The position numbers were made by a program, and so were the translations under genes. Positions 998-53,135 of a stretch of 64,000 nucleotides of DNA are shown in pieces (the first letter of the stretch is position 1; the number at the start of each line of letters is the position of its first letter). The DNA is from Amphiura filiformis (taxonomy: Eukaryota). Under the pieces are notes generated by a model, which ran no database searches, was not told where the DNA came from, and saw nothing but the letters and a program-made list of their open reading frames with translations. The stretch lies in contig NC_092633.1 of the NCBI RefSeq assembly GCF_039555335.1, forward strand, positions 21,100,334-21,164,333, read 5' to 3'.

Positions 998-1735
998 CTC
1001 ATATACTAAGTTTCAGTGGAACGGCTTTCGATAATTTCCTATTAACACACTAAAGGTTGGATTAAGTAAACACATATCATTACAGGCATCATTTACAGCG
1101 ACGGCAGTGTTCAGTACCTCCTTTAAACATAAATTGTATCTATTTATAGAAATAATGTTTAAAAAATAATTTATGTTGCTCTTTTTTTTCAATGAACCTG
1201 ATCTGCTTCATATTTAGTCTAACCAAACGTTACAACAGGTGATTCTATAATCATTAATGAACAGGTTTGCTATATGATGTGACAAATCAATACAGCAACA
1301 AGAAGAGAACAAGAATTGTTCATTTTGAATATCTGTTAGATAATCTACAGTACATCTTCTGTTTCAAGAATTTGCAAGTTGCAATAAATTCACCTGTCAA
1401 TCAAACCGTAAACTCGGTTATAATGCACTTTGTATTAACCTTCTGCACTACTAAAGCTACTATGAAATTGAAAACTTCTCATTAATGATATTTTTGGTTA
1501 TGCATTATGTAGAACAAATAACACTGTTGCTATTGAAGAGGTTCATTATAAATAACACTGTTTATGGCTGTAAAGTAACAGTAAGGCAAACTTAAAAATG
1601 TTGTTTTACTGGGTAGTACCAGGGATACTGAGTAGTACCAGGGAATGTTGCGTGGGTTTCAAAGAGGTTTTTCTTGCTTTTAAAAAGGATGACAGGGTAT
1701 TTAAAAATAAAATGTCAATATGATCTACACCCACA

Positions 1736-1800
1736 ATCATATAAATCCCCCGACATCAGCACCCTCCACCCCACACATACTACCACCGCCACAACAAAAT
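1736..1800. repeat. C/A-rich low-complexity patch (C-tracts, CACA, CCACC); macro-repeat landmark
   Basis: ccccgacatcagcaccctccaccccacacatactaccaccgccacaacaaa. Homologous patches occur at 12845-12962 and 25975-26050. Confidence 0.7.
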
Positions 1801-2309
1801 ACATAATATTCACAAACACCATTTTGTTTCATACTACTCGTCTTCTCGATCACTTATTTCTTCAGGCTGTGTACAAGTATGAGTAACTTACAACTTTAAT
1901 ACTAGCGTAGGCTTTCTATTAGCCTTTACACATACCAAACACAAAATGCAGACATGAGACCTTGTATAGAACAATGATATTGCTAAGAATTGTGTCCAGC
2001 ACTGAGAAAAACTCAATATCTAGCGTTTGTGGACACGATAAGAAGAAGAAGAAGAAGACCAACAAACACAAACACACATGATATTTTCTTATTCTTTTAA
2101 ATAGCCATTACATTTTTTTAAATGTAAAATAGGTTACTTTGGTTTACACGGAGAGAGCAATCAGAAATGTGGTCTATTAAGTAGGGAGGGATAAGTTGAC
2201 TAGATTAAGGAAAAGCACATACACCTGCTCATGAACACGCACAAACACACCCTACAATATTATAATCATGGATTGATAGAGTCAATGTGGGCTAAGTTTC
2301 TTTCTATTT

Positions 2310-2950
2310 CAGTGTCATTACGCAAGAACGTACAAAGTGATGTTAAAAGTAATACTTTCAGTTTAATAACGCAAAAGTTTACTAAGTGATGCTAAAAGTG
2401 ATGCTTTCAGTGTCAGTATGCAAAAGCTTACAAAGTGATGTTACATAAAAGTGATACTATTAGTGTGATTACGCAATAGGTTAAAAAGTGATGCTAAATG
2501 TGGTACTTTCAGGGTCATTATGCACAAGCTTACAAAGTGATGTTAAAAGTGGTATTTTCTTTGTAATTATGAAGGCTTACACACTGATACTAAAAGTGCT
2601 ATTTTCAGTGCCATTATGCAAATGAAAATTATTGATGCTTTCAGTGCAATTACTCAAAAAGGTTACAAAATGATGCTAAAAGTTATGCTTTCAGCGTCAT
2701 TATGCACAAGATTACAAAATGATGCTAAAAGTGGTGTTTTCTTTGTAATTGTGCATTATACTAATGCTAAAAGTGCTATTTTTAGTGTCATTATGCAAAA
2801 GCATATATATTGATGCTAAAAGTGCAACTTTCAGTTTAATTATGCAAAAGGCTTGCAAAGTGATGCTTAAAGTGATGCTTTCAGTGTCATTATGCAAAAG
2901 CTTACAAAGTGATGTTAAAAGTGATGCTTTCAGTGTCAATACATAAAGGC
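2310..2950 (+). repeat. 49-bp satellite array, about 13 units
   Basis: The unit is approximately gtgtcattatgcaaaagcttacaaagtgatgctaaaagtgatgctttca. The period of 49 was verified from gctttcagtg at 16112 and 16161 in the homologous array. Confidence 0.9.
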
Positions 2951-4190
2951 TTACACAAATTGATACCACAAGTCATCATGAGCTGACAGGTGTTAATGAA
3001 ATAGTAAGCTCGCAACCTCATACAAAGATCAAAAGGCAATAATACATGTATGATTGAATATTTTAGTGCAGGCAACCGTTCAAATTTCCTTGTCGTGTCT
3101 CGCCGAATATTGCCATTAGACTCAATATAAGGCGATATTCTTACAGGAGTTCGCATTTTTTTCTGACAATTCACCGTTTATTTTCCTAAATGTCTGTAAA
3201 AACACTTGACCATTTTGTGTGATTAATCACAAGCAGGACAAATACTACTTCATTTGGAAGTACTGTCTGCAATGATAAGGACTTTGGACGTCAATTTAAC
3301 GTTACGTTGCTATATTGATTTCTTATATATGGATGTGGTCAGTAGCCCGATATAATTTTTTTCTCTTTTATATTGAAAAACGGCTCAAGCTACATGCGTT
3401 ATATAAAAACCCTTTTAAATAATCGTGATGGTGTTAATATGATTTTAAGCAACATGTTTAGTGAAATGTAAGGAGACATTAATGTAAGGCATGTTAGGGT
3501 TACGATTGTTTCCCTAAATAACACTCTTCTTTATAGATAGGTTTATCTGTACTGTATACTTGACGATATTTTTCATCATATTATATTTCACCGCTTCTTT
3601 TCCACGTGTGTGGATTCATTACTCACGGGTTTGATTTTTAGCCAACACAAAAAAATAGCCATTGCGTTAGTTTAAAACCGGAGGGACTCAAAGTCGACCA
3701 AATTGTGCTTAACGAATGTTCCAAGCTATTTCAATATTTTGAATCATCACATAACTTTGTGTATACATCATGCTTTCAGGTTCCTACTGCTCCGACGTAC
3801 GTTTGTATTTTTACAGCAAAATCTCGGATTAAATTCGGTTAAAAATAACATATCTAAAATATGCACTACTTGTGTGCTTTGTTTCGTTATGTTATTTCTT
3901 ATATTCCTCCATACTCTTGGAGCTACTCAGCCCCAGGAATGCATCTGATCAATATTCTAAGCCTCATTGAGTGCCTTGGTAACCACTGAGAAGGCCTCCG
4001 GACATGCCTTAAGCATGCAAGCAAACTTACAAGTGGTCTTCAAAGTAGCCAATATACTCTGCATATTTTCACGTGTTTATTCAAGCAATTCAAACTTTCA
4101 AGCTCTTTCATGACGAACGTAAAGCATGATAAGGTTTCGTCATGGTATCTAGGCCTATAACGTCTGTATAAAATAAATTATATCAACATA

Positions 4191-6001
4191 CAGACTTGAC
4201 ATAAGTATGGGATAATTCTTCACGAAGTGCAAGGACTAATCTGAAAGGGGTCTGCATAAACCGCACGGGTTAAATATTTCATATTGGGGTGTGTCGGGAG
4301 ATGGTGGTGTCAAATAATTTTTTTATAGAAAATGTGCTTTCCATGACTACATTATGGTGCTCATAATGTAGTGAATTAGCCTAAAACGGCGGATTTAAGG
4401 AGACTGAATTTGAGTGGGAGAATTTTTAAATTTAACAAAATGGCTCTTAAAAGTAGTACGTACTCAGAAAGTTCAATCATAGAAGAAATTGGAACCCCTA
4501 AGGGTTCTTGGCCTTGTCTCGTATATGGAACCTCAAGGTTTCTTCCAAGGAACAGCGCCATCTACGTCTGCTACCAATAGGAGGCAACAGACGAGAAAGG
4601 TCAAAGCTGTTAGTAACTGGTCATATATGTGCGGAAGGAAGTACTTGTCACAATCCCTGTTGAGTGTTTCAAGCTACCCCTCTTTCTTATCCAAATTGAT
4701 TCCTTTATGTGTATTCTTTTCCTGCTGATTTTAATGTCTTATTTTGCTTCATCTCATTCAATTTGAGAAAGTGCTGTGTTACAGCACGGAACGTCATTGA
4801 GGTATGTCAATATCACCTATTTTTTATTATTTGTAAATAATTTCTCCAAAGAACCTTTGTTGAAGAACCCTATCACAAAGGTTCTTTAACATGTTTATTG
4901 AAGTCTAAAGGTTCTCCAATTTTGTCCAGTATATGGAACCCTACGGTTCATCAAAGAACCTTCATGATATCATGATATGGGTTCTTTGAATAACCCTATC
5001 AAAAAGGTTCTTTGTTGAACCTTTAAAGGTTCTTCTAGTTTGTCCCCATATATTGCACCCTATGATTCTTCAAAAAACCTTTGCAATAAGGTTCTTTGAA
5101 GTATGGTGACACGTACTCTAGAAATTGTCCTTAAAAGTACGGTCTTAAAGGTGAACGGCCAGAAAATTTTATATATTTGCTTGAAAATATAAAATCCGTG
5201 AAAATTTTATATATTTGCTTGAAAATATAGAATCCGTGGCTATTTAAAAATAGCGTTTTCCCTGCGTTTCAGTCGTATATGTAATACACTAGGAACCCTT
5301 TTCAAGTAAATTAGGGGTTCCTTGTGGAACTCAAAAGCCATAAAGAATCGTATTTTCACTGCGAGAACCCCATTGAGACTTCTAGCCTAGAGGTTCTTCA
5401 AGCGCACATGGTTCTTAAACGAATCCTATATCATTTTGAAGAACCCTTGAAGAACCCTTTTTCTAAGAGTGTTTGAATGGCCCCTAGGGGCAAATGTTAT
5501 AAACTTACTGTGCACAAAGAAACACGTGAGTTCATTGGACAACCAGAAATCCGCGCAGTTGTTTTTGTACCGTAAGTTTATAACATTTGACTTTTGACGC
5601 CGAGTACGTACCACGTTTAGGAAAAATATTTTAAGCTCCTCCCATTTAAAAGAAAATTGCGCATTGCAAGTACATTTCAGCTCTGATGAAAGCCAAAAAG
5701 GAAATATCACCTTAAACTCCAATGAATTTGATAATAACAATAACAATGTTGGATTAAGTCCGAAATTGTATCCCCCACAAAGATCAAATTCATTCCTTTA
5801 AATCCGCCATTTTAGGCAAATGCACTACATTTTGAGCACCATAATGTAATCTCATGGGGAAACACAATTTCTATAAAACAATTATTTTATACCATCTCCC
5901 GACACACCCCAATTAATATTAAGTCCGTGCGGTTTATGCTGACCCCTTCCAGATTAGTCTTGGCACTTCGTGAAGAAATAGTCCATACAATGTCAAGTCT
6001 G
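4191..6001. mobile_element. Foldback-type non-autonomous DNA transposon with ~245-bp terminal inverted repeats. Termini begin CAGACTTGAC (hAT-like CAG start, unproven).
   Basis: Left arm 4191-4435 is the reverse complement of right arm 5757-6001. The interior carries reiterated ggttct/agaacc sub-repeats and a 2x40-bp tandem repeat at 5161-5240. It is absent from the paralogous site in macro-repeat copy 2 (~17300, aataaattatgtagtttctgttcaag). Confidence 0.7.
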
Positions 6002-6394
6002 TAATGTACTTTCCGTTCAGTTCAAAACGAAACATTCGAGACATAATATTCCCCACACATGTCGCATTAAAAAAAAAATAAACACGTACTAATGAACTAG
6101 CCCCTACCAGCTAAACACTAAACTGTGTTTCATGTCAAGAGAAACAAATCATATTTCAAGAGTTGAATTGCTAAGGAGAAAAACGTGTTTTTGTGATTTT
6201 GCAATTCCCTTCGATTTGATTAATTTTGACTTGGGTTAAAGTTTCCATGGATAGAAACTAAAATAATAAGTTTGATGCAAATTTTCAGTCTTCAGTTTTA
6301 TTTTATTATTTCTTTTATTTCTTGGATTTTATGGATGTAAGCAGTTTTGCAATTCAACAAAATAACCACTTCTCTAGAAACCACCTTTGCAGTA

Positions 6395-7055
6395 CAATTT
6401 GATTCCAGCTTTGACGTCTACTTTATGCTTCTTGATCAATGCCTTTAAAATCAAAAGGGAAAATTGAAACTTGAAAATTGAAAAATTGAAAATTGAAAAC
6501 TTTAATTGACAAATTCCCGAAATTTCCCGAAAGGAAAAATAGCGATATCTCAGTAAGGGAAGGTGAAATGATAGTCAAACAAGCACCACAATGTGTATTG
6601 TGACCGACGTAATAACTCAATTTGATTCCAGCTTTGACGTCTACTTTATGCATCTTGATCAATGCCTTTAAAATCAAAAGAAAAAATTGAAAAATCTCAT
6701 TTTCTTTTTTAATTACGATTTTTTAATTAAATTCGTGAAAATGCCATTTTCCGTCATTTCAATAATCCAACTTTTGTTCATTAATTAATTAGTAATTCTT
6801 ACAATTATAATGGCCAAAAAAGTTCATTTTGATTTTAAACGTTAATGAACATTAAATGCTATCATAAAACTTCAAAACATTATAAGAAAAAATATTTTCT
6901 CTAGATTTTAGACAACTTTAATTGACATTTTCCAGAAATTCCCGAAATTTCCCGAAAGGGAAATAGCGATATCTCAGTAAAGGAAGGTGGTATAAAAGTC
7001 AAATAAGTACCAAAATATGTATTTTGACCGCCGTAATAACTCATTTTGACCAAAA
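6395..7055 (+). repeat. Local duplication of a ~223-bp unit with (GAAAATT)n and a tttcccgaaatttcccgaaagg motif; private to macro-repeat copy 1
   Basis: 6395-6462 repeats at 6618-6685 (caatttgattccagctttgacgtctactttatgc). 6502-6630 matches 6917-7050. The block 6130-7095 is missing from copy 2, where 17450 directly abuts the homolog of 7100. Confidence 0.6.
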
Positions 7056-8589
7056 GTGGACGTAAGCTGTTTTGCAAGTCAACTCTTCATGTATCCTATC
7101 TATGGCGGGCCATGGCGGTCATAAAAAAATTAGGTGCAAAAGGAGACGCGATCTCAAAGACGAGCATAACTTTTTCAGTCTTCTTCATATTTTGTCGACA
7201 TTTCTGAAACATAAATGGTTTAAGGGAATTCCTCCAATTTATCAATCATTTTAAGCAATTTATCAACCATTTTGGCCCTTGCCGAATATCTGAAATTGAT
7301 GTGACCCATCCTACAACCATGTCAAATTCTGACTTTTTGTATATTTAAACATAACTGTGAATTATATACAAGCAGTAAATAAGCTTTAAATGGCACCAAA
7401 TTTGCAGTTCTGTACCATAAAACCTATTTAATATTTATGAAGATGTGCTACAATTTGCTAAGAGTTATTTAAGTGTTAGTGTGATTTAAATTCTTAGATA
7501 TAAATAACTACATTTATTCTATTACGACCATGAAGAGGGATTAACAAAAGTCAAGATTCAATTGTTTGCTTTGTTCCATTAACTCTATATTATATTTTCT
7601 TTTATCTTAAATTGGATTTCATTACAAAACTACTAGGTCTACCAACATCACACTTGAATACTCGGATTAAACGATAAGTGAATTAATTAATAGTCCTTAA
7701 TTATTATTGGTTTAAGAAAAACAGAACAAACACATATACATCTTATAAGAAGACGCTGAGAAACATAAGAAATACATGATTCAATTAACTGATTTGAATA
7801 GCAAATATGACGAAAAATGTACATTTCAGATGTCATTCTGTTTTGACGCTCATTCATAATATAGTCATAGTAGATAACCCGGAAGTTGCACCTGTTACTT
7901 ATAAATTCGCGTAAAGTTTTGTACAATAAAGCCTTTGCCATATTGTGCACACATCAAAGAAGAGAATTCTCTGCCACCTGGCCATTGTTTTGACGTGGAC
8001 TTCATTCCAATGTTCAACGCTGGAGAAAAATAATATATCGCTGTAGGACTAAAGTAAACATGTTGTAGAATAAGGATTATTGTAAAACCTCTAGTAGGGT
8101 AAATATTCCGCAAAGGTAAAAGAAAAGGAAAAAGGGACAAGAAATGTTATAAATGGACACGTAGACGAGACATGCAAAATACATAAGGAAACAAACAGGA
8201 AGGAATTTCAGACGCGGATTAAGAAGTAAACTTTAGGAGACACACGGATATACTAGGCTTGGTTTATTGTGTAATGGTAAATGAATGGATAGTGACAATG
8301 CAGATAGGCAGGTGTTATAATACAGTTCCCTGTTGATGTGTACATGTATTACAGAGGTTCATCCCATTATTTCAAATGGGGTTATTCCAGATCTTTGAGA
8401 TCCTGAAACTGGATATTTATATTTATGACCAAAAAACGTAGTGGAATTAATATCATAATATGTCATGGTTTGATATTTTGACACTAGAAAGTCATACAAT
8501 GTTAAGATTTATGTCATCTTTCTAAAGCTTCACTAAAGAATGTTGTTGATTTGCGTTCACTGGAAATAACCTCAATGTAGTTCCATTTT

Positions 8590-11390: not shown

Positions 11391-11711
11391 GTAGAAGTAG
11401 TGATGTAACAGGTTTAATTACCATAGCAATGGGTTTACACTATTCTTTAATGTCCTGCACTATATGCAGGATGTACTAATCATCTGTGTATGTTTGCAAT
11501 GATAGATTGACTACGATACCGCTCTTTTCAAAGACATTAATCTTACAGGTGTTGGAGATCAGCATGATCTAATTCTAAATAATTACGATCCAGGTCTTTA
11601 TCCATGTACGGCATGAATGGCGTAACGCGACTTGCGCAGGCCAATACAATAAAAAAAAATAGTGTAAATCCATTGCTATGGTAATTAATCCTGTTACATC
11701 ACTACTTCTGC
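11391..11711. mobile_element. MITE, ~320 bp, with ~52-bp terminal inverted repeats
   Basis: gtagaagtagtgatgtaacaggtttaattaccatagcaatgggtttacactat at 11391-11443 is the reverse complement of 11659-11711. The internal region is shared with 59290-59400. Confidence 0.7.
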
Positions 11712-12844
11712 GACGAATTGATACTATTCCTTACATTGTTTTATTACTTACGCGTTATTAAAGCAGTATGCTATATAGTAGAATTTGTTATCCATTCTTG
11801 TTTCAGTACTGCTGCTTCAAATATTTTTGTTGTGCAGATAACCGTATTATATATAATATATACATACAGGTATTTCTCACATCTAAGTTCATTATTAATC
11901 CATAATTACTTCCTGTGAAGCCAAATTTGACAATATGTATACAAGGAAAGAAAAAGATAGAGATTTAATGGAACATTAAGAAAAAAGACAGAGTTCAGCA
12001 ATACATTCCGAACACATGCTGAACACATAATAATCACATGTGCCTGAAACTATTTATATAATAGCTATGGACAAATTGTGGGATATTTTTGTCACCTTCT
12101 TGCAATGACCTTACTTAATAATAACTCCAAAAATATGTAAAACCAACCTGCAGAAAGAAGGGTTTTGTGATGATTAGATCTAAAAAAGTGCTACAAAATA
12201 TTGGTTTTGAAATTGGTTTTCGAAATATGTTTACAAAACATGTCATTAAGACCTCGTTTTGGTCTTCCTAGTAACCATTTTTGTCTGATTTGGATTAAGT
12301 GCATGAACATATTTCATTGATATACAGGCATCATTTACAGCGACTGCAATGTGCATTACCTCCTTCAAACATAAACTGTATCGTCATAGAAATAATGATT
12401 TAAAAATAATTTGTGTTGATCTTTCTTCCCAATGAACCTGACCTGCTTCATATGTACTCTCTATTTGGTATAGTTGTGACAAATCAATAGAGCAACAATA
12501 TGAGTACAAGAATAGTTCGTTTCGAATATCTGTTAGATAATCTACTGTATGTCTGCTTCTATTTCAAGAATTTGCAAGTTGAAGAAATTCACCTGTCAGT
12601 CAGGCCGCAAACTCGGTTGCATTTTGTATTAACCTTCTGCACTACTAAAGCAACTATGAAATTGAAAACTTCTCTTTAAGGATATCTTTATTTATGCATT
12701 ATGTAAAACAATTAATTAATCTTACAAATGTGGTTTAACGCGTATTATACTGACAAATACTGAGTGGTACCAGAAAATATCGCGTGGATTTTCAAAGAGG
12801 AATTTTTTGCTGTCAGTATGTACAGCTATACAAAGGACAGACAC

Positions 12845-12962
12845 ACGAACCTCTCTACAACCACCACCACATCACCACCTTCCAACACACCCCACACACA
12901 CCACACACACCCCCATCCCCACCCCCCCCACACACACACCCACACCCACCACATATTTCATA
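12845..12962. repeat. C/A-rich low-complexity patch (expanded version)
   Basis: ccaccaccacatcaccaccttccaacacaccccacacacaccacacacacccccatccccaccccccccacacacacacccacacccacc. The His/Pro/Thr-rich ORFs reported in the track here are translation artefacts of this patch. Confidence 0.7.
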
Positions 12963-13419
12963 CTACCACTCTTCTTTACCACGACTTTAAGTAACAACTT
13001 TAGTACTAGCATAGGCATTCCGTTCCCTGAACAACCGTGCGAAATGTCAACCTTCTCCCCCAAACACAAAATGCAAAGCTGAGACATTGCAGAGAACAAT
13101 GACATTGCTAAGAATTGTGTCCAGCTCTGATTGAAACACAATATCTAGCGTGTGAAGACACGATAAGAAGAAGAAAGTCAACAAACACAAAAACACAAGA
13201 CATTTTCTTATTCTTTGGTTTACACGAAAAGCAATAAGGAATCTTGTGTTGTAATGTTCACAAGGAATGTGGTCTAATAACAGGGATGAATAAGTTGACT
13301 AAGTTGAGGAAAAGAACACAAACTTGCTCATAAACAAGCAAAAAAACACCCAATGATCTTATCATCAGGCCATAAAATGGATTGATAGAGTAAATTAAGG
13401 TCAAGTTTCTTTCTATTTC

Positions 13420-14655
13420 AGTGTCATTATGCAAAAGCTTGTAAAATGATGATAAAAGTGACGCTTTCAGCGTTATTATGCAAAAGCTTACAAAGGTTAC
13501 AAAGTGATTCTAAAAGTAATGCTTTCAGGGTCATTATATAAAAGTTTACAAAGCGATGTTAAAAGTTATGCTTTCAGTGTAATTATGCAAATGGCTCCAA
13601 AGTGATGCTAAAATTATGCATTCAGTGTTATTATGCAAATGGTTACAACGAGATGCTAAAAGTGATGCTTTCAGTGTAATTATACAAACAAAGTGATGCT
13701 AAAGCTGATGCATTCAGTGTAAGGCTTACAACGTGATGCTAACAATGATGTTTCAGTGTCATTATTTAAACTTTGACAAAGTTATGCTGATGCTAAAAGT
13801 GATGCTTCCAGTGTCATTATGCAAATAGTTACAATGAGATGATACATTCGGTGTAATTATGCAATGGTTTACAACGTGATGCTTTCAGGGTCACTATATA
13901 AAAGGTTACAAAGTGATGCTAAAAGTGATGCTTTCACTGTAATTAGGCAAATAGTTACAAAGTGATACTAAAATGATGCTTTCAGTGTAACTATGCAAAG
14001 GTTTACAACGTGGTGTTAAAAATGATGTTTTCAGTGTCAATATTTGAAAGCTAAAAGTGATGCTTTCAGTGTCATTATGCAAAGGCTTACAACGTGATGC
14101 TAAGAATGATGTTATCAGTTTCATTATTTAAAAGCTTACAAAGTAATGCTGATGCTAAACCTAATGCTTCCAATGTCATTATGCAAATTGTTACAACTAG
14201 ATGCTAAAAATGATACATTCAACGTAATTATGCAAAGGCTTACAACGTGATGCCAAAAATTATGTTTCCAGTGTCATTATTTTAAAGCTTACAAAGTGAT
14301 GCTGATGCTAAAGGTGATGCTTCCAGTGTCACTATGCAAATGGTTACAAGCAGATGCTAAAGATGATACATTCAGTGTAATTATGCAAAGGTTTACAACG
14401 TGATGCTAAAAATGATGTTATCAGTTAACAGTTTCATTATTTAAAAGCTTTCAAAGTAATGATGATGCTAAACGTAATGCTTCCAATGTCATTATGCAAA
14501 TTGTTACAACTAGATGCTAAAAATGATACATTCAGTGTAATTATGCAAAGGTTTACAACGTGATGCTAAAATAATGTTTTCAGTTTCATTATTTAAAAGT
14601 TTACAAAGTAATGCTGATGCTAAACGTAATGCTTCCAATGTCATTATGCAAATTG
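13420..14655 (+). repeat. 49-bp satellite array (copy 2, part a), interrupted at its 3' end by a MITE
   Basis: Same unit as 2310-2950. The MITE 14659-15237 sits inside a repeat unit. Confidence 0.9.
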
Positions 14656-14658
14656 TTA

Positions 14659-15237
14659 GGGAGGACAGTTTTTATGGTCTACTTAGCTCAGCAATTCTTT
14701 GCGTCTTCGATAGCGCATTGTATCGGAGAGGTACCTGGCTTTTATCAAAGCCCAAAACCATAAAAGCATGTAGCCAACTCTGTCAGGCTCCGCTCAATTG
14801 TCCACCCCGCTCCGATACGACACGTTGACCAAATATCAATCGAATCTATTTTACGACCCTGCTTGAATTAACCCCTTGAAACCTAATTGCACCACTTTTA
14901 ATTTTTATGTATTGGTCAGGCACAAACAAAATTAAACTTACACACATTATTGACTTTCTATTGACCACAAAACACGACCCCAGACATGCTTATTTAATGA
15001 CCACTTGAGTAGTTGATTTAAGTGGGTCGTTATGTACTTACTGAACACAAAGGAAATTGATTATGGTTTTACCATCGACCGTGTTTATAATCCTGCTGCT
15101 CTGCTGAACGCTCCGATAGATATCAGCAAACCCGTATACTATTCGCTTGTTCCTATCGAACGCTCTAGCGTACATGAACCATTATTGAAGACAGCAAAGC
15201 ATTGCTGAGCTAAGTAGACCATAAAAACTGTCCTCCC
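14659..15237. mobile_element. PIF/Harbinger-like MITE (579 bp) inserted into the 49-bp satellite
   Basis: Perfect 37-bp TIR gggaggacagtttttatggtctacttagctcagcaat. It is flanked by TTA at 14656-58 and 15238-40. The satellite unit reads through uninterrupted if the element plus one TTA is removed (tgcaaattgTTAcaactagatg). Confidence 0.7.
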
Positions 15238-15240
15238 TTA

Positions 15241-15790
15241 CAACTAGATGATAAAAATGATACAGTCAGTGTAATTATGCAAAGGTTTACAAGTGATGCT
15301 AAAATAATGTTTTCAGTGTCATTGTTTGAAAGCTTACAAAGTGCGGCTAAAGGGATGCTTTCAGCATTGTTATGCAAAAGCTTACAAATGGGTTAAGTGG
15401 TGCTAAAAGTGATGCTTTCAGTGTCACAGTGCAAAGGCTTACAACGTGGTGCTAAAAATGAAGTTTCAGTGTCATTATTTAAAAGCTTACAAAGTAATGC
15501 TGATGCTAAACGTAATGCTTCCAATGTCATTATGCACATTGTTACAACTAGATGCTAAAAATGATACATTCAGTGTAATTATGCAAAGGTTTACAAAGTG
15601 ATGCTAAAAATGATGTTTTCAGTGGCATTGTTTTAAAGCTAAAAGTAATGCTTCCCGTGTCACTATGCAAACGGTTACAAAGTGATGCTGATCAAATTGA
15701 TGCTGAAAGTGCTACTTTCAGTGCAAAGTGATGCTTAAAGTGATGCTTTTAGTGTCATTGTGTAAAGGCTTACAAAAATTGACACCAAAA
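15241..15790 (+). repeat. 49-bp satellite array (copy 2, part b)
   Basis: The array continues after the MITE. It ends in a truncated copy of the array 3' flank (15790-15895, cttacaaaaattgacaccaaaaatagtcatgtgctgacaggtgccaatg). Confidence 0.85.
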
Positions 15791-15895
15791 ATAGTCATGT
15801 GCTGACAGGTGCCAATGAAACTGTAAGTCCGCTTTTTCACGCCTCGCCGAATATTGCCAAGTTAGACTACTAAGGCGGTATTCTTCCATTTTCAA

Positions 15896-16240
15896 GAACA
15901 AAGGTTACAAAATGATGCTAAAAGTGATGCTTTCAGCGTCATTATGCACAAGATTAAAAATTGATGTTAAAAATGGTGTTTTCTTTGTAATTGTGCAAAG
16001 GCTTATATACTAATTTTCAGTGTCATTATGCAAAAGCATACATATTGATGATAAAAGTGCAACTTTCAGTGTAATTATGCAAAAAGCTGGCAAAGTATTG
16101 CTAAAACTGATGCTTTCAGTGTCATTATGCAAAAGCTTACAAAGTGATGCTAAAAGTGATGCTTTCAGTGTCATTATGCAAAAGCTTACAAAGTGATGTT
16201 AAAAGTGATGTTTTCAGTGTCAATATATAAAGGCTTACAC
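15896..16240 (+). repeat. 49-bp satellite array (copy 2, part c), followed by the complete 3' flank
   Basis: A second array block follows the internal flank copy. This implies an internal array-plus-flank duplication in copy 2. Confidence 0.85.
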
Positions 16241-17726
16241 AAATTGATACCACAAGTCATCATGAGCTGACAGGTGTTAATGAAATAGTAAGCTCGCAAC
16301 CTCATACAAAGATCAAAAGGCAATAATACATGTATGATTGAATATTTTAGTGCAAGCAACCGTTCAAATTTCCTTGTCGTGTCTCGCCGAATATTGCCAT
16401 TAGACTCATATAAGGCGATATTCTTACAGGAGTTCAATTCAACGTTTATTTTCCTTAATGTCTGTAAAATACTTCACCATTTTTTGTGATTAATAACAAG
16501 CAGTACAAATAATACTTCATTTGGAAGCACTGTCTGAATTGACAAGGACAAGGACGAAAATTTAACGTTACGCTGCCTTAATGATTCCCCATACAAGGAT
16601 GCGGTCAGTAGCCCGATATAGTTTTCTTTCTCTTTGACCTTGGAAAACGGCTCAAGCTACATGCGTTATATAAAAAACGATATTAAATAACCGTGATAAT
16701 GTTAATTATAATTTTAAGTATAAACATGTTTAGTGAAAGGGTTACGATTTTACCTTAACGACTCTTTTTAGATTTTTTTTATTTTTATTTTTTATTTGAA
16801 CTGTATACTTCTTGAAGATGTTTTATTTATTTTATATTTTACCGCCTCTTTTCCACGTGTGTGGATTTATTATTTAAGGTTTTTTTAAAAGGGTTTCATT
16901 TTTGCCCAACACAAAATAGCCATTGCGTTATTTTAAATCCACCGGGGCCAATAGTCCATGGTGCTTAACCAATATTTTGAATGGATCAACATCATATAAC
17001 GTTGTGTATACATCATGCTTTCAGCTTCCTACTGCTCCGACGTATGTCTGTATTTTTACAGCAAAGTCTCGGATTAAATTCAGTTAAAAATAACATACCT
17101 ACAATATGCACTTCTCGTGTGTTTTGTTTCGTTATGTTATTTTGTATATTCCTCCATACTCTTGGAGCTACTCAGCCCCAGGAATGCATCTGATCAATAT
17201 TTTAAACCTCATTTGTTAGTATCCACTGAGAAGGCCTCCGGACATGCCTTAAGCATGCAAGCAAACTTACAAGTGGTTTTCAAAGTAACTAATAATACTC
17301 TGTATACAATAAATTATGTAGTTTCTGTTCAAGTTAAAACAAAGTCGACACTCAGACATTCCCCACACATGTCGCTTTTTTAATACGTGCTAACGAAGTA
17401 ATCCCTACAATGAATCAGCTAAGCACTGTATTTTCAAAATCCTAAGTTCTCTAAGGCGGTCATAAGAAAAAATACGTACAAAGGGAGACGCGATCCCAAC
17501 GACGGACGGAGCCTGTCAGTTTTCTTCATATTTTGTCGACATTACTGAAATGAAAATGGTTTAAGAGCATTCCCCTAATTTATCAACCATTTTTAAGCAA
17601 TCGCAATGCAATGATCCGTGCCGGATCTCAGACATTAATATGACCATCCTACTACAACCCTGGACATGTCAACATTTTTGTATAATTTAAACATAACTGT
17701 GAATTACCAACAATAAATAACCTTAA

Positions 17727-18270
17727 GGGATCTGGAATGAGCGTTTTGAGCGTTTCGACAATATTTTTGTGGGACATGAGAGCACATCAGACATATCGAA
17801 TTGCATTCTGAATACGAAGAATGTCTTTCTGATATCAATTTTTTTTTTTTGAAATTCACGATATAAAACAAATTTTATGACAAATTATTAAATTTGATAT
17901 TTTTCACATTTTTGATATACATGTATAACAGTCCTCGAAGTAAATTTTATAAATCTAATGATATATTCTTAAAGTGTATGTAGCTAGGAGGTAAAGCCGA
18001 CGATCAATTGAAAATTTTGACCTTTCATCCCACCTACATACACTTTAAGTATAAATCATCAGATTTATAAAGTTTACTTCGAGTGCTGTTTCAACAAAAA
18101 TATCAATTTTCAATCATTTGCCATAAAATGTGTATTACATTGCGAATTTCAAAAAATCAAAATTATTTGATATCAGAAGGACATTCTTCGTATTCAGAAT
18201 GCAATTCGATATGTCTGATGTGCTCTAATGTCCCACAATAAATACTGTCTAAACGTTCATACCCCACCCC
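17727..18270. mobile_element. TTAA-flanked palindromic MITE (544 bp) with ~70-bp perfect subterminal inverted repeats and GGG...CCC termini
   Basis: TTAA at 17723-26 and 18271-74. 17762-17830 is the reverse complement of 18170-18237. The empty paralogous site at ~7388 (gcttTAAAtggcaccaaat) has a single TTAA. Confidence 0.7.
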
Positions 18271-19023
18271 TTAAGAATGGCACCAAATTTGCAGTTTTGT
18301 ACCATAAAACCTATAGTATATTTATGAGGATATGCTACAATTTGCTAAGGGTTTTTTAAGTGGTAATGTAATTTCAATTCTGAGGAATAAAGCAATACAT
18401 TTCTCCAATTACGCAGTCCTGAATAGGGATTAACAAAAGTCAAGATTCAATTGTGTGCTTTGTATTCACATGAGTATGACAAACCATTAACTCTAGATAT
18501 TCAATTACAAATATTTTACCTTATGATATGGTCGGTTCTTTTATCTTAAATTGTCTTCATCACAAAATTAGGCCTGCCTGCATCGCAATAAGTGAATTAT
18601 TTACTAATCCTTAATCATTATTGGTTTAAGAAACACAGACCAAACACATATAAATCTTATAAGAAAACCCTGAGAAATACAAGAAATATATACTAACTGT
18701 TTTGAATAGTAGATAAGACGAAAATAAACCAAGATTTGAGTTGTCATTGTGTTTCAATGCTCATTTATAAAGTCATAGTTGATAAGTCTGAAGTTGCACC
18801 TGTTCGTTACAAATTCGCGTAGAATTGTGTACAATAAACCCTTTGCTATTGTGCACACATCAAAGAAAAAGGTTCTGTGCAACTTTTTTTTTATCTTTCC
18901 ACAGAGCACACAAGGTGCCCTGTGTATTTATTTATCAAACATGATCTCAGTTATACATAGTTATAAAAGCCACAATTATACAGAATAATAACAATAATAT
19001 TACATTGATGAAAGTAACTGTTA

Positions 19024-19713
19024 TTACATATTTATAGAGTTCCATCTTTTATTCCATTCATACATTTTACCTTTATTGTTTGCAATGTGTTTTTCAGTCT
19101 CGGCGACAGTATTAAGCATACCTTTAAAACCTTGTATGTCCAGCTTATTTTTATTACATCTTGCATTATAAATAAACTTTTTCCCCTGAAGAACAACAAA
19201 ATTATAATGACAATAATCAACATCTAATATGCCCAACAGAACATCCTTCATGGTAAGAGTAACTCTTTTTTTAAAGATATTATCTTGAACCTTCTTCCAA
19301 AATTGAGCAGAAGTACCACATTGCCAAAATAAATGTGGGATATTTTCTAACTCCTGATTACAAAAAGTACAAAGATTTGAATCAACATAACCATATTTAA
19401 ATAGATTTTCATTTATACCTATAATTCTATGCAGAATTTTGAATTGAAAATACCTAAGTTTGGTTGATAGGGAGGAAGACAAGGAAATCCTGTAAATATC
19501 GTTCCAATTTAAATTCATATCATCAAAAAAGACAGCCCATTTGGCCTCGGCTTTGGGCGCAGTTAAACAACTTGTCAACGCAAATTTTGTGAACCAATTT
19601 GCAGACCTTCTTAGAGGAACAGATAAGAGCAAGCATATCATCATGATCATTCTGAACAGTTCCCAAGTCTTCCCCCCTCTCGACACTTCTGATCCATACA
19701 TTTGGAATGGCAT
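19024..19713 (-). pseudogene. L1-like ORF2 C-terminal region with Cys-rich motif and stop codon (copy B)
   Basis: ORF ends 19024. The ~130-bp 3'UTR then runs to the poly(A) at 18892. Confidence 0.7.
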
Positions 19714-21009
19714 AGATTAGAGCAAAATATTCCAGAAAGTTACATTGTAAATTATACTTGGTCTTCAAGATATCAAGGGGAAGAAAACTATCATCTTCAT
19801 TTAAAATATCAGAAATAAATTTAATACCTTTCTCATGCCAGACTTTTTTGTAAACAGTGTTTTGGGCGATAACAATAGATGAATTATTCCATAATATTTG
19901 ATGTCTAAAATGACTTGAAGGAGAATCATAAGTAATTGTACACCAAGCGTTGAGAATTTCACCAATAAACACATTCTTAATAAGCTTAATACATTTCTCC
20001 TCTGGTTTAGTGTTAAAAAAACAAAAAAGATTACCACCAATCTGTTTCATATAAAACATATAAAAACATTTCCATTTACCATTGTTGTTCACATCCAAGA
20101 GACGTTTAACCCAAGCCACTTTAAGCCCATTAATAACTGAGGGAATGTGAACCATCTTGAGGCCCCCTTTCTCATAGTCACCAATGATGGACTTTCTGCT
20201 GAGCTTATCTGGTTTTCCTGACCAAATAAATTTAAATATTATCGAGTCAACCTCCTTCAAAAAATTATCAGGTGGTTTAGGTAAAACAGAAAACAGAAAA
20301 ATTAATTGAGAAAGACCCAAGGATTTAACAATTGTAATTTTACCAATTGGACTTAAATCTCTCATCGACCAAATTCGCAAGATTTCCTTGAGTTTTTTGG
20401 AACGAAATTTAATTCAAAAATATTGCTCAGATCAGAACTAAAAACTACACCCAAAAGACGAACAGGATTGGCAGTAAAATGTAAATCATCATTGTTTAAA
20501 TCAGGAGGATTATCCTTAAACAAACCTAAAGGGAGTAACTCAGATTTATCCAAGTTAATTTTCAAGCCAGAATAAATTTGGAAAGTCTCAAGAATGTGAA
20601 CAACTCTGTGAAGGAGCCAACATCCTTTAAGTAAATAGTGGTATCATCCGCATAAGCACTAATAATAATTTCAGTATTCTCAACCATGATACCTTTAACA
20701 CTATTATCATTTCTGATGGCCAAATTCAAAATCTCACTACTAATTATATAAAGCAGCGGACTAAGTGGACAACCTTGACGAAGTCCACAAAACAATTAAA
20801 AAAATCAGAAGCATGTCCATTGTTCATAACACACGAGGTAATATCTGTATAGAAAACTTTCACCCAATTAATCAAATCATCACCAAAATTAAACAATTTT
20901 AATGCCCTAAACACAAAGGACCATTCAAGTTTGTCGAATGCCTTTTCAAAATCAATTAAAAACATAATACCAACAAAATTATTTTCTGTGCAACCTGATC
21001 ATTGGGTTT

Positions 21010-22714
21010 GAAGTACCACATTGCCAAAATAAATGTGGGATATTTTCTAACTCCTGATTACAAAAAGTACAAAGATTTGAATCAACATAACCATATTTAA
21101 ATAGATTTTCATTTATACCTATAATTCTATGCAGAATTTTGAATTGAAAATACCTAAGTTTGGTTGATAGGGAGGAAGACAAGGGAATCCTGTAAATATC
21201 GTTCCAATTTAAATTCATATCATCAAAAAAGACAGCCCATTTGGCCTCGGCTTTGGGCGTCTTAAACAACTTGTCAACGCAAATTTTGTGAACCAATTTG
21301 CAGACCTTCTTAGAGGAACAGATAAGAGCAAGCATATCATCATGATCATTCTGAACAGTTCCCAAGTCTTCCCCCCTCTCGACACTTCTGATCCATACAT
21401 TTGGAATGGCATAGATTAGAGCAAAATATTCCAGAAAGTTACATTGTAAATTATACTTGGTCTTCAAGATATCAAGGGGAAGAAAACTATCATCTTCATT
21501 TAAAATATCAGAAATAAATTTAATACCTTTCTCATGCCAGACTTTTTTGTAAACAGTGTTTTGGGCGATAACAATAGATGAATTATTCCATAATATTTGA
21601 TGTCTAAAATGACTTGAAGGAGAATCATAAGTAATTGTACACCAAGCGTTGAGAATTTCACCAATAAACACATTCTTAATATTAAAGCTTAATACATTTC
21701 TCCTCTGGTTTAGGGTTACATTCCCAAAAAAGATTACCACCAATCTGTTTCATATAAAACATATAAAAACATTTCCATTTACCATTGTTGTTCACATCCA
21801 AGAGACGTTTAACCCAAGCCACTTTAAGCCCATTAATAACTGAGGGAATGTGAACCATCTTGAGGCCCCCTTTCTCATAGTCACCAATGATGGACTTTCT
21901 GCTGAGCTTATCTGGTTTTCCTGACCAAATAAATTTAAATATTATCGAGTCAACCTCCTTCAAAAAATTATCAGGTGGTTTAGGTAAAACAGAAAACAGA
22001 AAAATTAATTGAGAAAGACCCAAGGATTTAACAATTGTAATTTTACCAATTGGACTTAAATCTCTCATCGACCAAATTCGCAAGATTTCCTTGAGTTTTT
22101 TGGAACGAAATTTAATTCAAAAATATTGCTCAGATCAGAACTAAAAACTACACCCAAAAGACGAACAGGATTGGCAGTAAAATGTAAATCATCATTGTTT
22201 AAATCAGGAGGATTATCCTTAAACAAACCTAAAGGGAGTAACTCAGATTTATCCAAGTTAATTTTCAAGCCAGAATAAATTTGGAAAGTCTCAAGAATGT
22301 GAACAACTCTGTGAAGGGAGCCAACATCCTTTAAGTAAATAGTGGTATCATCCGCATAAGCACTAATAATAATTTCAGTATTCTCAACCATGATACCTTT
22401 AACACTATTATCATTTCTGATGGCCAAATTCAAAATCTCACTACTAATTATATAAAGCAGCGGACTAAGTGGACAACCTTGACGAAGTCCACAAAACAAT
22501 TTTAAAAAATCAGAAGCATGTCCATTGTTCATAACACACGAGGTAATATCTGTATAGAAAACTTTCACCCAATTAATCAAATCATCACCAAAATTAAACA
22601 ATTTTAATGCCCTAAACACAAAGGACCATTCAAGTTTGTCGAATGCCTTTTCAAAATCAATTAAAAACATAATACCAACAAAATTATTTTCTGTGCAACC
22701 TGACCATTGGGTTT
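21010..22714 (-). repeat. Tandem duplicate of 19309-21009 (LINE 5' part plus TSD plus 15 bp of upstream flank)
   Basis: The junction at 20983-21011 reads ttctgtgcaacctgatcattgggttt|gaagtaccac. That is the TSD plus flank joined to internal LINE sequence (= 19309), with a 2-bp 'ga' microhomology. The two units are near-identical. Confidence 0.7.
22065..22670 (-). pseudogene. L1-like ORF2 reverse-transcriptase fragment (copy A)
   Basis: 201-aa ORF with FIDFEKAFD, RQGCPLSPLLY and YADDTTIY. The equivalent region in copy B (20362-20965) is broken into three frames by homopolymer indels. Confidence 0.8.
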
Positions 22715-30640: not shown

Positions 30641-30873
30641 TGTCTGAGGTATCTCAATACAAATACTACCGAATCATTTTCTGAACACGAGTTACAAAAT
30701 ATGATACGCCTATATATGCGTTACTTATTCAGTTGTTCATTGGACTGTCGTTCTTCAATGGAATCTGTCTAGCAAGTTTGGAACGGGTGTTACTAAAACG
30801 AAGACAGGAGACCGAAGACGTTTAGCGAAGGTCTGCAATTCTCTATTTTAAGCCCACGGTTGAATAAAACATA

Positions 30874-31466
30874 CGAGGGGTATCAAAAAGTTTTAGAAAT
30901 CGCACAGAAGTGAAAGAGCTATATCAATGAAATTTTGTCAGTGCAATCACTGGTCCTTATGTACACTATGGTGCAAAAATGGTCTCATAAGTATGTTTAC
31001 TTTTTTTACAGGAGCTAGATGTCACTACCTGCCTATGTAACCGCATAACCAGCAAAATGGAGAAAATTGAGCCATGCAGCATGATTAAGTTCCATTTTAA
31101 GGGTTACAGTGCCCAGAAAATCTGTGATGAAATAAAAATTCCTTTTCCAAAAAGTGACAGTGACATATCACAATCACCACCGAAGATAACTTTCATTTCA
31201 TCATCAATTTTCTAGGCACAGCAACCCTTCAAAAGCTGGATCTTAATAATGCTGCTTGCCTCAATTTTCTCAATCTTGCAGTTTATGCGCAGTAATTGGG
31301 GCAGCGGGTTATTGGCATCTAGTGCCACCTGTAAAAAAAGCAAACATACCTATGAGACCATTTTTGGACCATAATGTACATAAGAACCAGTGATTGCACT
31401 GACAAAATTTCATTAATATAGCTCTTTCACTTCTGTGCGATTTCTAAAACTTTTGATACCCCCTCG
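30874..31466. mobile_element. TA-flanked MITE (593 bp) with ~125-bp TIRs, likely Tc1/mariner-mobilised
   Basis: 30874-30990 is the reverse complement of 31340-31466 (cgaggggtatcaaaaagttttagaaatcgcacagaagtgaaagagctatat...). TA dinucleotides at 30872-73 and 31467-68. Confidence 0.7.
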
Positions 31467-33272
31467 TACGCACCCTATGTTGTTTTAAAAATAATAGTAT
31501 CCAAATTTATTTGGTATCTTTTACTTCATGAATATATAGACTTCTGAATTCTTATGATTAGAGAAGTAGACTAAGTTTGGTGTGATTTCAACATTTTTGA
31601 ATATTATTTGACCCCTGTATACACTTCGATGACCTACTCCCGTCATCATGCAAAGAAATTTTCGCTCTTAAACCAAATTTGTTAGCCATGTCAAATGCTT
31701 CATCTGTCAATTTCTGTGTTTTTCCGGTAAAATGAACACTGCTTTCAACATTCTGCAGGTATAAAAATGGTAATATTGGCTAAAGGTTTCAAGTAAACTA
31801 CACTAAGTTCAATTTGCTAAACAAGTTGGTTGACACATTAATGGTTGGATATGGATCTCTTACACAAAATTAACCAAGTAGAGACAAACCTCTTCAGAAG
31901 CAACGGGCCTACCAGAAAAGACGTGATGTTCTCAATTACTTCGCTATATGAAGAGCTTTGTTTTAAAAACCCTTGCATCCACTTTTGGCTGAAATTGAGT
32001 TATTGACATGACATATAGTGTGGGTAAAAATACACATTTTGTGTCATACCACTTTCCCTTCCGGAGATATGGTATATTTCCCGTTTGGGAAATCTTAGGG
32101 AATTTCCGGAAATCTGAACATAAAATGAATATAAAATTGTTTTGTTTTAATTTTTTGATGTATACTAGTAGCATGGAATGTTCTTTACCTATTAAAACCA
32201 AAGGGAATTGTTTTTGGGTCACTATTTTTGAAAAAATCATTTTAATCAACAAAAGGTGTAGCTTCGGAAATACTCAAAAAAGTAAATAAAAAAGTAAATG
32301 AGATATTTCAATTTTTCTTTTTGATTTTGAAAGCATTAGTCAAGTTACATAAAGTAGTGCAAACAAATGGGCTCAAATATGATTGCAAAGGTGGTTTCTA
32401 GAAAAGGGGTAAATTTGTTTTGTTGCAAAAGCCCTTACATCCACAAAAGGCGCGATATAAAAGATATAATAAAATAAATAGGAAGGCTTCAAAATTGTAC
32501 CAAACCTATTCTTTTAGTTTCTATTCATCAACACTTTATCCAAACCCAAATTGAATCAAATCGAACCAGTAATATTTGCACAATTTAAAAAAGCTGTTTT
32601 TCTCAAAAAGTCAAAAGTGGATGTAAGGGGTTTTGCAACAAAGCTCTTCATATATCGGTTTAATGCAGCAATGACGCCCAGATCATCTAGTTTGTTAACT
32701 TCAAAAACGTTAACTTCAAATTTTCTAGACATATCAAGCGCTTCATCTGAGCCCATTTCTATGCTTTTTCGGCAACAGAACACTGCTTTCACCATTCTGC
32801 AGCACCAATCGTGCAAGCTAAAATAAGGAAACTAATGTTATAGATTATGTAATTTGCAGTATCAAACTTCATCCAGTTTATCAACAATATTTTCTTTGGA
32901 TAATTTCATTCAAACATTTATTCGATATAAATTTTATAGATTTTGAGCAGTTACAATTTTGGTTAACCAAATTGATAAGCTAATATACTCGTATGAGATG
33001 AAATATTATTGTAAATATTTCAAGAAAACATAAACAATAAACTATTCATTAAATTGTAAACGTCATTCAGAGCAGGATATGGTAATCTATCGGAGATAAC
33101 GAGTTTTATATCATAATACTAAAAAGTAAGACTTTTCGTGTATAAAGCACCAACATCGTCTGCCACTCGAGGAAAATAGCAAGTTCTTGAATATTTAGAA
33201 TGTTATATTTAAATAAGCAATTCAATTTAATGATATAAATCAATTACTGGCGATGCATGCATGTGACTTTTT

Positions 33273-33470
33273 TAGTGACGTTTCACCACTACACTAGTTG
33301 TTTCATCAGACTTGCAACTCATCACATCTAAGTGCTTCCTTTTCTTAACAACATCTTTGACCAACTCATAACGCCCTCAACGGTTCCTGTTGCCTATAAA
33401 AGGAAGCAGTCAGATGTGATGAGTTGCCAGTCTGAAGAAACCACTAGTGTAGTGGTGAGACGTCACTAAA
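33273..33470. repeat. Hairpin element with ~70-bp stem and ~60-bp loop
   Basis: tttagtgacgtttcaccactacactagttgtttcatcagacttgcaactcatcacatctaagtgcttcc is the reverse complement of 33400-33470. It is absent from the paralogous repeat copy at ~34450-34500. Confidence 0.6.
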
Positions 33471-34824
33471 AATTTAAGTAGTTCAACATAATTTTTCACT
33501 TGAATTGTTCAAAACGAACCATATTTACAGATGTGGCTGACATTTTTGTACAAAATTACAGCTAATTTCAATCGTTGTTCACAAACTACTTTATGATTCC
33601 ATTGATCATCTGCTGGCCAATCAAATACGCTGAAACTATTACATCAGGTCACGTTTTTATTTTCTCTGAACTCAATAAACTCAATACCTAAAGCACTTGC
33701 ATAAACGGCTATTAATCTGTCATTTACGCCACTCAAACTCTTTTAGATTGGGAACCAATTTAGGTCATTGGCTAATTTCAAGTAAACTACATTAAGATCA
33801 ATTTTCTAAACAAGTTAGTTGACACACTAATCTATAGTTGACACTCAGAATAATTGGATATGGATCTCTTACACCGAATTATTAGTCAAATTCTGTGTCA
33901 CAGTGTACTGAGTAAAGACAAGCCTCTTCAGAAGCGTCGGACCTACCAGAAACAACATGGTGTTCTCAATAACACTTGTTTAGACTGGTTTATATTGTTA
34001 AGTCATAGATTTATTAATTCGCCATATCTCGGTCACTAGTCGTGCAAGCTAAAATAAGGTAACTAATGTTAGAGATTGTGGAATTATATTTGCATTATTA
34101 AATTTCATCCATTTTATCAACAATATTTTCTTTGGATAATTTCATTCAAACATTTATTCGATATAATTTTTACAGATTTTGAGCAGTTTCAATTTTGGTT
34201 AACCAAACACATATTGATAAGCTTTTATATGAGATGAAATATTTACCGTAAATATTATCAGGAAAACAAAAGCAATAAACTATTCATTAAATTCGTAAAC
34301 GTCGTTAAGAGCAGGATGCGGTAAACTATCGGATATAACGACTTTTAGATTATAATACTCAAACGTAAGTCTTCTCATGTTTAAAGCACCAATATCGTCT
34401 GCCATTTGAGAAAAAAATCAAATTCTTGAATATTTAGAATGTTATATTTAAATAAGCAGGTCAATAATATAACTCAATTACTTTTTGTACAAGATTACAG
34501 CTTCGTCTATTGCTTGGTAAAAATGACAATTTTTATTTTATCCAAGAGATATAGATTTCTTCAATCGACGTTCGCCAGCTACTTTATGTTTCCATTAACC
34601 ATCTGCTAGCCAATAAAATACGATTAAACCATTGTAAACTATTACATCAGGTCAAACACTTGCGTAAACGCCTAATAATCTGTCATTTGCGCCACTGAGA
34701 CTCTATTAAATGGGGAACAAATTCAGGTCATCAATATTGGCTTAAAGTTTCAAGTAAACTACACTAAGATCAATTTTGTAAACAAGTTAGTTCACACATT
34801 AATATATGGTTGACACTCAACACT

Positions 34825-36995: not shown

Positions 36996-37301
36996 CTAAC
37001 AAGATACATTGAAAAGATGAGTTTTGAGTCCTTTTTTGAAAGAGTTTATGTTTGATACTGAACGAAGCTTGAAAGGCAACTTGTTCCATACCTTTGGTGC
37101 AGCTGCGGCAAATGATCTTTCGCCGTAGAACTTGGTTTTACACTTCTTTGGAGCGCGTGTACAAAGGAGAGCTTGTGAAGCCGATCGTAGAGTCCGCTGT
37201 GGCTTATACTCCTCAATAAGATCGCTAATATATCTAGGAGCCAACCCGTGCAATGCCTTATAGGTAAGCAATGCAATCTTGTATACAATCCGCTGTTGCA
37301 C
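36996..37301 (-). CDS. L2 ORF2 extreme C-terminus, displaced into another frame by a frameshift
   Basis: ALLTYKALHGLAPRYISDLIEEYKPQRTLRSAS...APKVWNKLPFKLR...FKKGLKTHLF is the canonical L2 tail. Confidence 0.8.
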   Translation of the reverse strand: MQQRIVYKIALLTYKALHGLAPRYISDLIEEYKPQRTLRSASQALLCTRAPKKCKTKFYGERSFAAAAPKVWNKLPFKLRSVSNINSFKKGLKTHLFNVSC

Positions 37302-42062: not shown

Positions 42063-42190
42063 TCCATGTGCTTAGAGGTTAATAACTGCGCATCGGTTAT
42101 TTGGAGGGCATTGTGAAAAATCTAAACATTTTGTTTAGATTTTTCACAATGCCCGACATATAACCGATGCAAAGTTATTAACCTCATTCA
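42063..42190. repeat. Perfect 54-bp-arm hairpin (palindrome)
   Basis: gaggttaataactgcgcatcggttatttggagggcattgtgaaaaatctaaaca is the exact reverse complement of tgtttagatttttcacaatgcccgacatataaccgatgcaaagttattaacctc. Confidence 0.7.
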
Positions 42191-46156: not shown

Positions 46157-46183
46157 TTTTTTTTTTTTTTTTTTTTTTTTTTT
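46157..46183 (-). repeat. 27-nt poly(T) run, equal to poly(A) on the minus strand; possible retroposon tail
   Basis: Homopolymer tttt...t followed by ctgtgttttttattttaac. No recognisable ORF is adjacent. Confidence 0.6.
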
Positions 46184-47204
46184 CTGTGTTTTTTATTTTA
46201 ACAAGATATCACACAAAAAAGAATTAAGCTCCCCATTGTTTGTGTCCCATACTGAGGAGGAGTACTCCAAGAGTGGTCTGACTAATGTTGTGTAAGCAAG
46301 GGCTTTAAGCTCTTGCAGACATGATAGTAGATTTCGGTGGGGTTTACAACTTTTTATCATGGTTTTTGGTCACACAATTTAAGAAAAACATATCTCGGCC
46401 GTAAATGTTTCCCGGGGAATAATGAACAAAAAAGAGCTTTCTTCTGATATCAAAATCTCACCTTTGATGAGCGAAAGTGGGGGAGGGTGAAGCTGGCGAT
46501 CTGGTCAGATACCTTCAAAAATAAAAGAAAGAAAAAAATCACATTGGATATATGTCATTATAGGATACATTAAAAGATGAATATAATTTACTTGCCATGA
46601 AGGTAAGATAAAATTACATCTTAATCAAAAATCGGGCAATATGTGAAAAACAGTTCATAAATTATATTGATATAAATGAAACATGAAGTACTAAACTCTC
46701 CGTCAAATGATATCTGTTCAGAAAGTTGTTCGGATTAATCTCATATTACATTTTATGCGTTACTGGCTATAATCAGGAAATAATAATCCAAATTCAAAGT
46801 GACAAGCTCTTCACAATAGATTTGTCACCAAAGTTTTATCATTATAATGGCATCGCATCACATTATATTGCTATAGATTAATGCCTCCTTTGGGATATAA
46901 ATTGAACCTTTTTGTAAAATTAAGACTTTCAATAATTCTAACAAGACGCGAAAACAGATTAACTAGTTTTTAGTGCACAATAGATTTTTGAGCTTGTCAA
47001 GTTTCAATTCTGATGAATTATTCAAGTAAATCAAGGTCTCGGTTACTTTTCTTTAAATAAAACCATTCCTGGGGGCATGATTTTCCCAATTTACCTGATG
47101 GAATATGTTTTATTGTATGACGTCTAACTAGAAACAACGACATTTATCAGAGGCTCTTCGGAAGCAACTTTCTTTTCTGTCCACTTTTGAATATCTTTTA
47201 TGCT

Positions 47205-53020: not shown

Positions 53021-53113
<93 letters not shown>

Positions 53114-53135
53114 ACTATTATTATTATTATTACTA
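53018..53135 (+). repeat. (ATT)n microsatellite, about 38 units with a few interruptions
   Basis: attattattatt... The poly-Ile ORF reported at 52987..53172 (-) is its translation artefact. Confidence 0.95.

Follow-up and report, generated by a model that had tools for sequence, protein, structure and literature searches.

A 579-bp MITE, probably of the PIF/Harbinger type, inserted at a TTA in a 49-bp tandem array of Amphiura filiformis

Results

Boundaries and inverted repeats of the element

The window, the whole 64-kb stretch of Amphiura filiformis DNA that was analyzed, contains a 579-bp MITE at 14659-15237 that inserted into a tandem array with a target-site duplication (TSD) of 3 bp, TTA. 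This insertion is close to certain: terminal inverted repeats (TIRs), a TSD read against empty sites, and a short, non-coding body were all found. The full statement, that the element is a non-autonomous MITE of the PIF/Harbinger type, is given a probability of about 0.6.

Direct reading was used to confirm the coordinates, length and sequence of the element, and pattern search was used to locate its ends. The left TIR (14659-14695, + strand) is GGGAGGACAGTTTTTATGGTCTACTTAGCTCAGCAAT and the right TIR (15201-15237, - strand) is the reverse complement of GGGAGGACAGTTTTTATGGTCTACTTAGCTCAGCAAT. The two sites pair at 37/37 positions with 0 mismatches. The 579-bp length and the perfect 37-bp TIR given by the sequence-only reading were exact by both methods. 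A TIR match of 37 bp was obtained in 0/100 dinucleotide-preserving shuffles. Pairing extends imperfectly beyond the perfect repeat, over 44 nt at 98% (left arm to 14702) and, at longer reach, over ~55 nt at 94.5% (left arm to ~14712). An apparent inverted repeat of 50 nt is an artifact of the near-palindromic target TTGTTACAA only. The TIR starts GGGAGG. Long TIRs are frequent among MITEs. The 579-bp size is inside the usual MITE range, which lies below 600-800 bp (PMC3579700, PMC5199201).

Empty sites and the TTA duplication

The element is flanked by TTA at 14656-14658 on the left and at 15238-15240 on the right. Both flanks had been proposed and both were found by direct reading; the left position is a single TTA in the paralogous uninterrupted units, and the right one was also seen in the junction alignment. 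The bases beyond and within the flanking TTA differ (g/c and g/c), and the TSD is therefore exactly 3 bp when the element is taken as a symmetric inverted repeat.

The host DNA is a tandem array, so the neighboring array units are paralogous empty sites. In the empty-site test, 14560-14658 was joined to 15241-15340, which removes the element together with one TTA. The reconstructed site of 199 bp aligns end to end, at 90-92% identity, with units 14400-14607, 14094-14295 and 15446-15640. When the junction was aligned jointly with 14465-14560, 14155-14250 and 15503-15598, no gap appeared, and every row reads ...ATGCA(A/C)ATTGTTACAACTAGATG... with one TTA. The three paralogous empty units each carry a single ...GCAAATTGTTACAACTAGATG..., and each of the three neighboring repeat-unit copies has one TTGTTACAA. 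The earlier proposal that a repeat unit is repaired by removing the element and one TTA thus agrees with three paralogous units across a gap-free junction. The target TTGTTACAA is a 9-bp palindrome except for its central base and is centered on TTA, as read at a single site (n = 1). The adjacent repeat units act as built-in empty sites that fix the element boundaries and the 3-bp TTA duplication to the base.

The host array lies within a duplicated segment

Repeat search and alignments place the host tandem array at 13416-16239; its 49-bp monomers are arranged in higher-order units of ~153 bp. The insertion postdates the formation of the local repeat units and interrupts one unit of a pre-existing array. 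The MITE is single within the array, which means that it was not copied in later array amplification. The insertion provides a relative date, after array formation and uncopied in the later expansion of the array.

A larger segment of the window (1057-7977) is paralogous to 12290-18883 at ~72-77% identity. The flanks of the array are conserved on both sides between the two segment copies, which makes the array an internal part of a repeated segment. The array measures ~0.65 kb in the first copy (2307-2955) versus ~2.8 kb in the second (13416-16239). On these alignments, the array is tandem-repeat DNA internal to a duplicated segment, or to a large dispersed repeat, and it has expanded in one copy. 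The term satellite, which had been applied to it, is loose: the array forms no stand-alone satellite block and sits inside a segment present twice. The MITE is found in the second segment copy only, so it probably inserted after the divergence of the two copies. The first segment copy may instead have lost it by precise excision.

The interior is non-coding and carries subterminal copies of a TIR motif

The interior of the element (14696-15200) is non-coding. Its longest ORF encodes 58 aa, and no protein, Rfam or tRNA match was obtained. A 1179-aa six-frame pseudo-protein of the element was searched against 5.8 billion proteins and gave no homologue at E ≤ 0.01. Neither the 58-aa nor the 45-aa internal ORF had an exact match among recorded proteins. 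An RNA or tRNA origin of the interior was rejected on the absence of matches in Rfam and ARAGORN. Comparison by blastn within the 64-kb window detected no likeness of the interior to other window sequence. The G+C content of the whole element is 41% versus ~35% in the surroundings.

The heptamer TTATGGT, which is part of each TIR, occurs at 14672-14678, 14757-14763 (- strand), 15061-15067 (+ strand) and 15218-15224. Each half of the element thereby holds one further copy in inverted orientation relative to its TIR copy. In the left half, the subterminal copy TTTTATGGT (14757-14765, - strand) runs opposite to the left TIR copy at 14670-14678; in the right half, TTATGGTTTT (15061-15070, + strand) likewise runs opposite to the right TIR copy at 15218-15226. 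The heptamer is present 4 times in 579 bp versus a density of ~0.27 per kb over the remaining window sequence. Two extra copies in ~500 bp are mildly unexpected (p ~ 0.01, rough Poisson estimate). The arrangement is suggestive, and the subterminal TTATGGT copies may be additional putative protein-binding sites.

Searches for other copies and for a partner

No other copy of the element was found in the 64-kb window when the TIR was searched with up to 3 mismatches allowed over 19 or 37 nt. Searches of the window with the terminal 13-mer at 2 mismatches and with blastn at word size 7 returned the element itself alone. The pattern searches and blastn agree with the earlier observation that the window holds no second copy. 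With no second TIR match in the window, there is no same-ended partner within it, and the identified window ORFs of at least 120 aa are LINE-type only.

Outside the window, the TIR 20-mer had one match in JGI metagenomes, and a 19-mer had two matches in bacterial MAGs among GTDB genomes. These matches were confined to 20 and 19 bases, respectively, and were rejected as chance. Two TIR patterns gave no match in viral contigs. Literature searches with terminal 11- to 19-mers returned unrelated primers only. In the literature, no paper was found that links A. filiformis with Harbinger, and no described ophiuroid Harbinger MITE was found.

Other repeats in the window

A LINE-type retrotransposon is located at 37046-40131 (- strand) with adjacent ORFs of 573 aa (endonuclease domains) and 462 aa (reverse-transcriptase-like). 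The 573-aa ORF (38410-40131, - strand) is identical over its full length (100%) to an NCBI 'uncharacterized protein [Amphiura filiformis]'. Further matches to this ORF belong to A. filiformis as well, and on these matches the window is brittle-star DNA. This ORF is a LINE ORF, so the annotated A. filiformis gene model is a transposon ORF. A second retrotransposon-like region at 19024-22670 (- strand) contains near-identical ORF segments twice: 19523-20380 repeats in 21682-22083 and 20979-21743, and 19024-19713 repeats in the end of 20979-21743. This pattern points to a tandem duplication within the region or to a pair of copies, nested or side by side.

A MITE-like element at 49545-49913 has inverted ends GGGGGTACTACACC... 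and TTAA on both sides (CTTAA|GGGGG ... CCCCC|TTAAT). It differs from the 579-bp element in TSD signature and shares no sequence similarity with it. The window holds 59 long inverted-repeat pairs in total, with arms of up to 141 nt at 92%; they include 30872-31468, 17764-18241, 33269-33472, 11393-11709, 42075-42185 and 4205-5988. These pairs look like further MITEs or foldback elements, which fits a DNA-transposon-rich genome. Simple repeats are (ATT)39 at 53021-53137, (GAA)21 at 63731-63793 and a 43-nt T-rich run at 46157-46199.

The ENA metagenome assembly ERZ25070167 has contigs of 31-144 kb that carry LINEs 77-83% identical at the nucleotide level to the window LINE. Their source was probably a related animal, possibly another brittle star, sequenced as by-catch. 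In 41 kb of two LINE-bearing contigs of this assembly, the MITE and the 49-bp repeat were both absent.

Assignment to a superfamily

Non-coding elements with a 3-bp TAA/TTA TSD are classed as PIF/Harbinger (PMC3579700, PMC3014272), and 3-bp TSDs are made by PIF/Harbinger and IS5 (PMC4122938). An extended target of 9-15 bp around the TSD is preferred by PIF/Harbinger (PMC2836001). The Repbase rule for non-autonomous elements uses positions 1-11 of the termini, with ≤1 mismatch, and the same TSD length (PMC4455052). Prolific PIF/Harbinger (Tourist) MITEs are described mainly from plants (PMC3579700), and the Harbinger TIR is quoted as 14-25 bp (PMC3014272). The element carries the 3-bp TTA/TAA TSD of PIF/Harbinger as TTA, at one site, and the 9-bp near-palindromic TTGTTACAA is compatible with the PIF/Harbinger target preference (n = 1). 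The termini 5'-GGG...CCC-3' presumably resemble PIF/Tourist/mPing ends (GGGC.../GGCC...). The TSD, the copy number and the target preference of the element are all drawn from n = 1. The sequence-only reading had named a PIF/Harbinger MITE with a clean TTA TSD. The MITE and its TSD are established by the TIR, the TTA flanks and the empty sites; the superfamily is plausible and fits the standard rule.

The same reading took a TWA TSD as the hallmark of PIF/Harbinger, which is too strong, as Zator also makes 3-bp TAA/TTA TSDs. A TWA TSD is a good, non-exclusive indicator of PIF/Harbinger. The element could be a Zator MITE, mobilized by a single Zator transposase that integrates with a 3-bp duplication, and this is the foremost alternative, though an unlikely one. 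Zator has relatives in IS630-Tc1-mariner and in bacterial TP36/ISAzo13, and both Zator and ISAzo13 generate 3-bp TSDs (PMC10045372). Zator-1 of amphioxus, also an invertebrate deuterostome, has 33-bp TIRs, with a TAA duplication reported at one site and a TTA duplication at a second (PMC12905397), a signature shared by the element down to its long TIR. At 37-55 bp, the TIR is longer than the 14-25 bp of Harbinger and close to the 33 bp of Zator-1. A 3-bp TAA/TTA TSD with TIRs, as found here, does not discriminate Zator from PIF/Harbinger. Rarity counts against Zator, which Bao et al. reportedly described in 2009 as relatively rare in eukaryotes, and low Zator counts are reported in fungi. The weighting was made by judgement, not measurement: PIF/Harbinger receives the value given above, and the remainder is divided about equally between Zator and everything else. 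It was set in this way because Zator counts are low in fungi, PIF/Harbinger MITEs are prolific and Zator is said to be rare.

A related proposal concerns the age and the partner of the element. On this proposal, the element would belong to the recent A. filiformis DNA-transposon burst, be young and perhaps still capable of moving, and have a partner that is Zator-type or otherwise unusual and shares the TWA target. We consider this combination doubtful. If true, a Zator-type partner would make this a second deuterostome case of a Zator-driven MITE family and a caution against TWA as a Harbinger diagnostic.

It is improbable that the element belongs to another TIR superfamily with 3-bp duplications, such as Academ (3-4 bp), Tc4/Tc5-like Tc1/mariner (TNA), CACTA/CMC (3 bp) or an undescribed group. 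Academ MITEs are given with 3-bp TSDs (PMC5199201), and Tc4 duplicates TNA within CTNAG (PMC11071193); the element target is GTTAC, not CTNAG, which rejects TcMar-Tc4. CACTA/EnSpm (CMC) needs a CACTA/CACTG start (PMC3579700) and was rejected on the GGGAGG start of the TIR. A single random 3-bp TSD at ~35% G+C would be TTA or TAA in ~7% of cases by a base-composition estimate, but a random TSD would be TWA ~14 times less often than one made by a TWA-specific enzyme, and the palindromic surroundings of the target agree with a sequence-specific integrase. piggyBac/Kolobok was also rejected: the flanks are TTA|G and C|TTA|C, with no TTAA duplication.

Less probable still is a 2-bp TA duplication made by a Tc1/mariner (Stowaway-like) MITE with an extra T at the right end. 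The parse ttgt-TA-[GGG...CCCT]-TA-caa leaves the same empty site and is arithmetically consistent with the sequence and the paralogues. It needs asymmetric ends with an unpaired right-end T, but the two arms of the inverted repeat mirror each other exactly, from the initial G to the final C, and symmetric ends give a 3-bp duplication. Tc1/mariner ends usually begin CA, CC or TAC and are usually not GGG. The chance that there is no transposon, and that a chance inverted repeat or an assembly artifact in repetitive DNA was read as one, is negligible: tandem arrays are prone to mis-assembly and a single copy is seen in the window, but by shuffling the expectation for a perfect 37-bp inverted repeat is zero, the boundaries match the 3-bp duplication and the repeat-unit restoration to the base, and the interior has no relation to the array and is of different composition.

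Discussion

The A. filiformis genome is 1.57 Gb with 59.3% repeats, and it has undergone a recent 10-15 Myr burst, mostly of DNA transposons, at ~2% divergence (PMC11310086). The undamaged TIR and intact TSD fit a fairly young DNA-transposon insertion, and one copy gives no date. The element is one more MITE, ordinary for a transposon-rich genome, and matters little by itself. Its assignment illustrates that, in invertebrate deuterostomes, PIF/Harbinger and Zator are not told apart by TWA duplications alone.

The proposed mechanism starts with one insertion, made after the local units had formed, into the TTA at the center of the near-palindrome TTGTTACAA. The element encodes nothing, and its mobilization in trans, by a transposase encoded at another genomic locus, is inferred, as are the superfamily and the role of the repeated motif in binding. 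The transposase would bind the 37-bp inverted ends, perhaps also the two subterminal TTATGGT motifs, and excise the element. Joining to a target cut with a 3-nt stagger, followed by gap repair, would then produce the TTA duplication. The likeliest source would be a PIF/Harbinger-type system, made up of a DDE transposase and, as a second protein, a Myb/SANT-like DNA-binding factor that attaches to the ends. In the PIF/Harbinger-type case, the Myb-like protein would recruit the transposase to the element ends. Such systems target TTA/TAA within an extended palindromic site. Their excision is usually precise, and removal of the element with one TSD copy would restore TTGTTACAA exactly.

The element is likened to known systems by their features. 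Tourist-like MITEs such as rice mPing, maize mPIF and zebrafish Harbinger3N_DR are, like the element, short, non-coding and bounded by TIRs. Tourist-like PIF/Harbinger MITEs and the element share a 3-bp TTA/TAA TSD at the center of a ~9-bp palindromic A/T-rich target and termini of the form 5'-GG...CC-3', a likeness of features and not of sequence alignment. The element differs in its TIR (37 bp perfect, ~55 bp imperfect), which exceeds the 14-25 bp of Harbinger, and in its host, an ophiuroid echinoderm. Zator-1 of amphioxus and the element have in common a 3-bp TAA/TTA TSD, a long TIR (33 versus 37 bp) and an invertebrate deuterostome host. Zator-1, compared here by description and not by terminal sequence, has palindromic arms flanking cargo, unlike the element. 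Among bacterial insertion sequences, IS5 is the prokaryotic relative of PIF/Harbinger and ISAzo13 that of Zator, and both make 3-bp duplications like that of the element. IS5 and ISAzo13 are autonomous with their own transposase, whereas the element is non-coding and resides in an animal genome.
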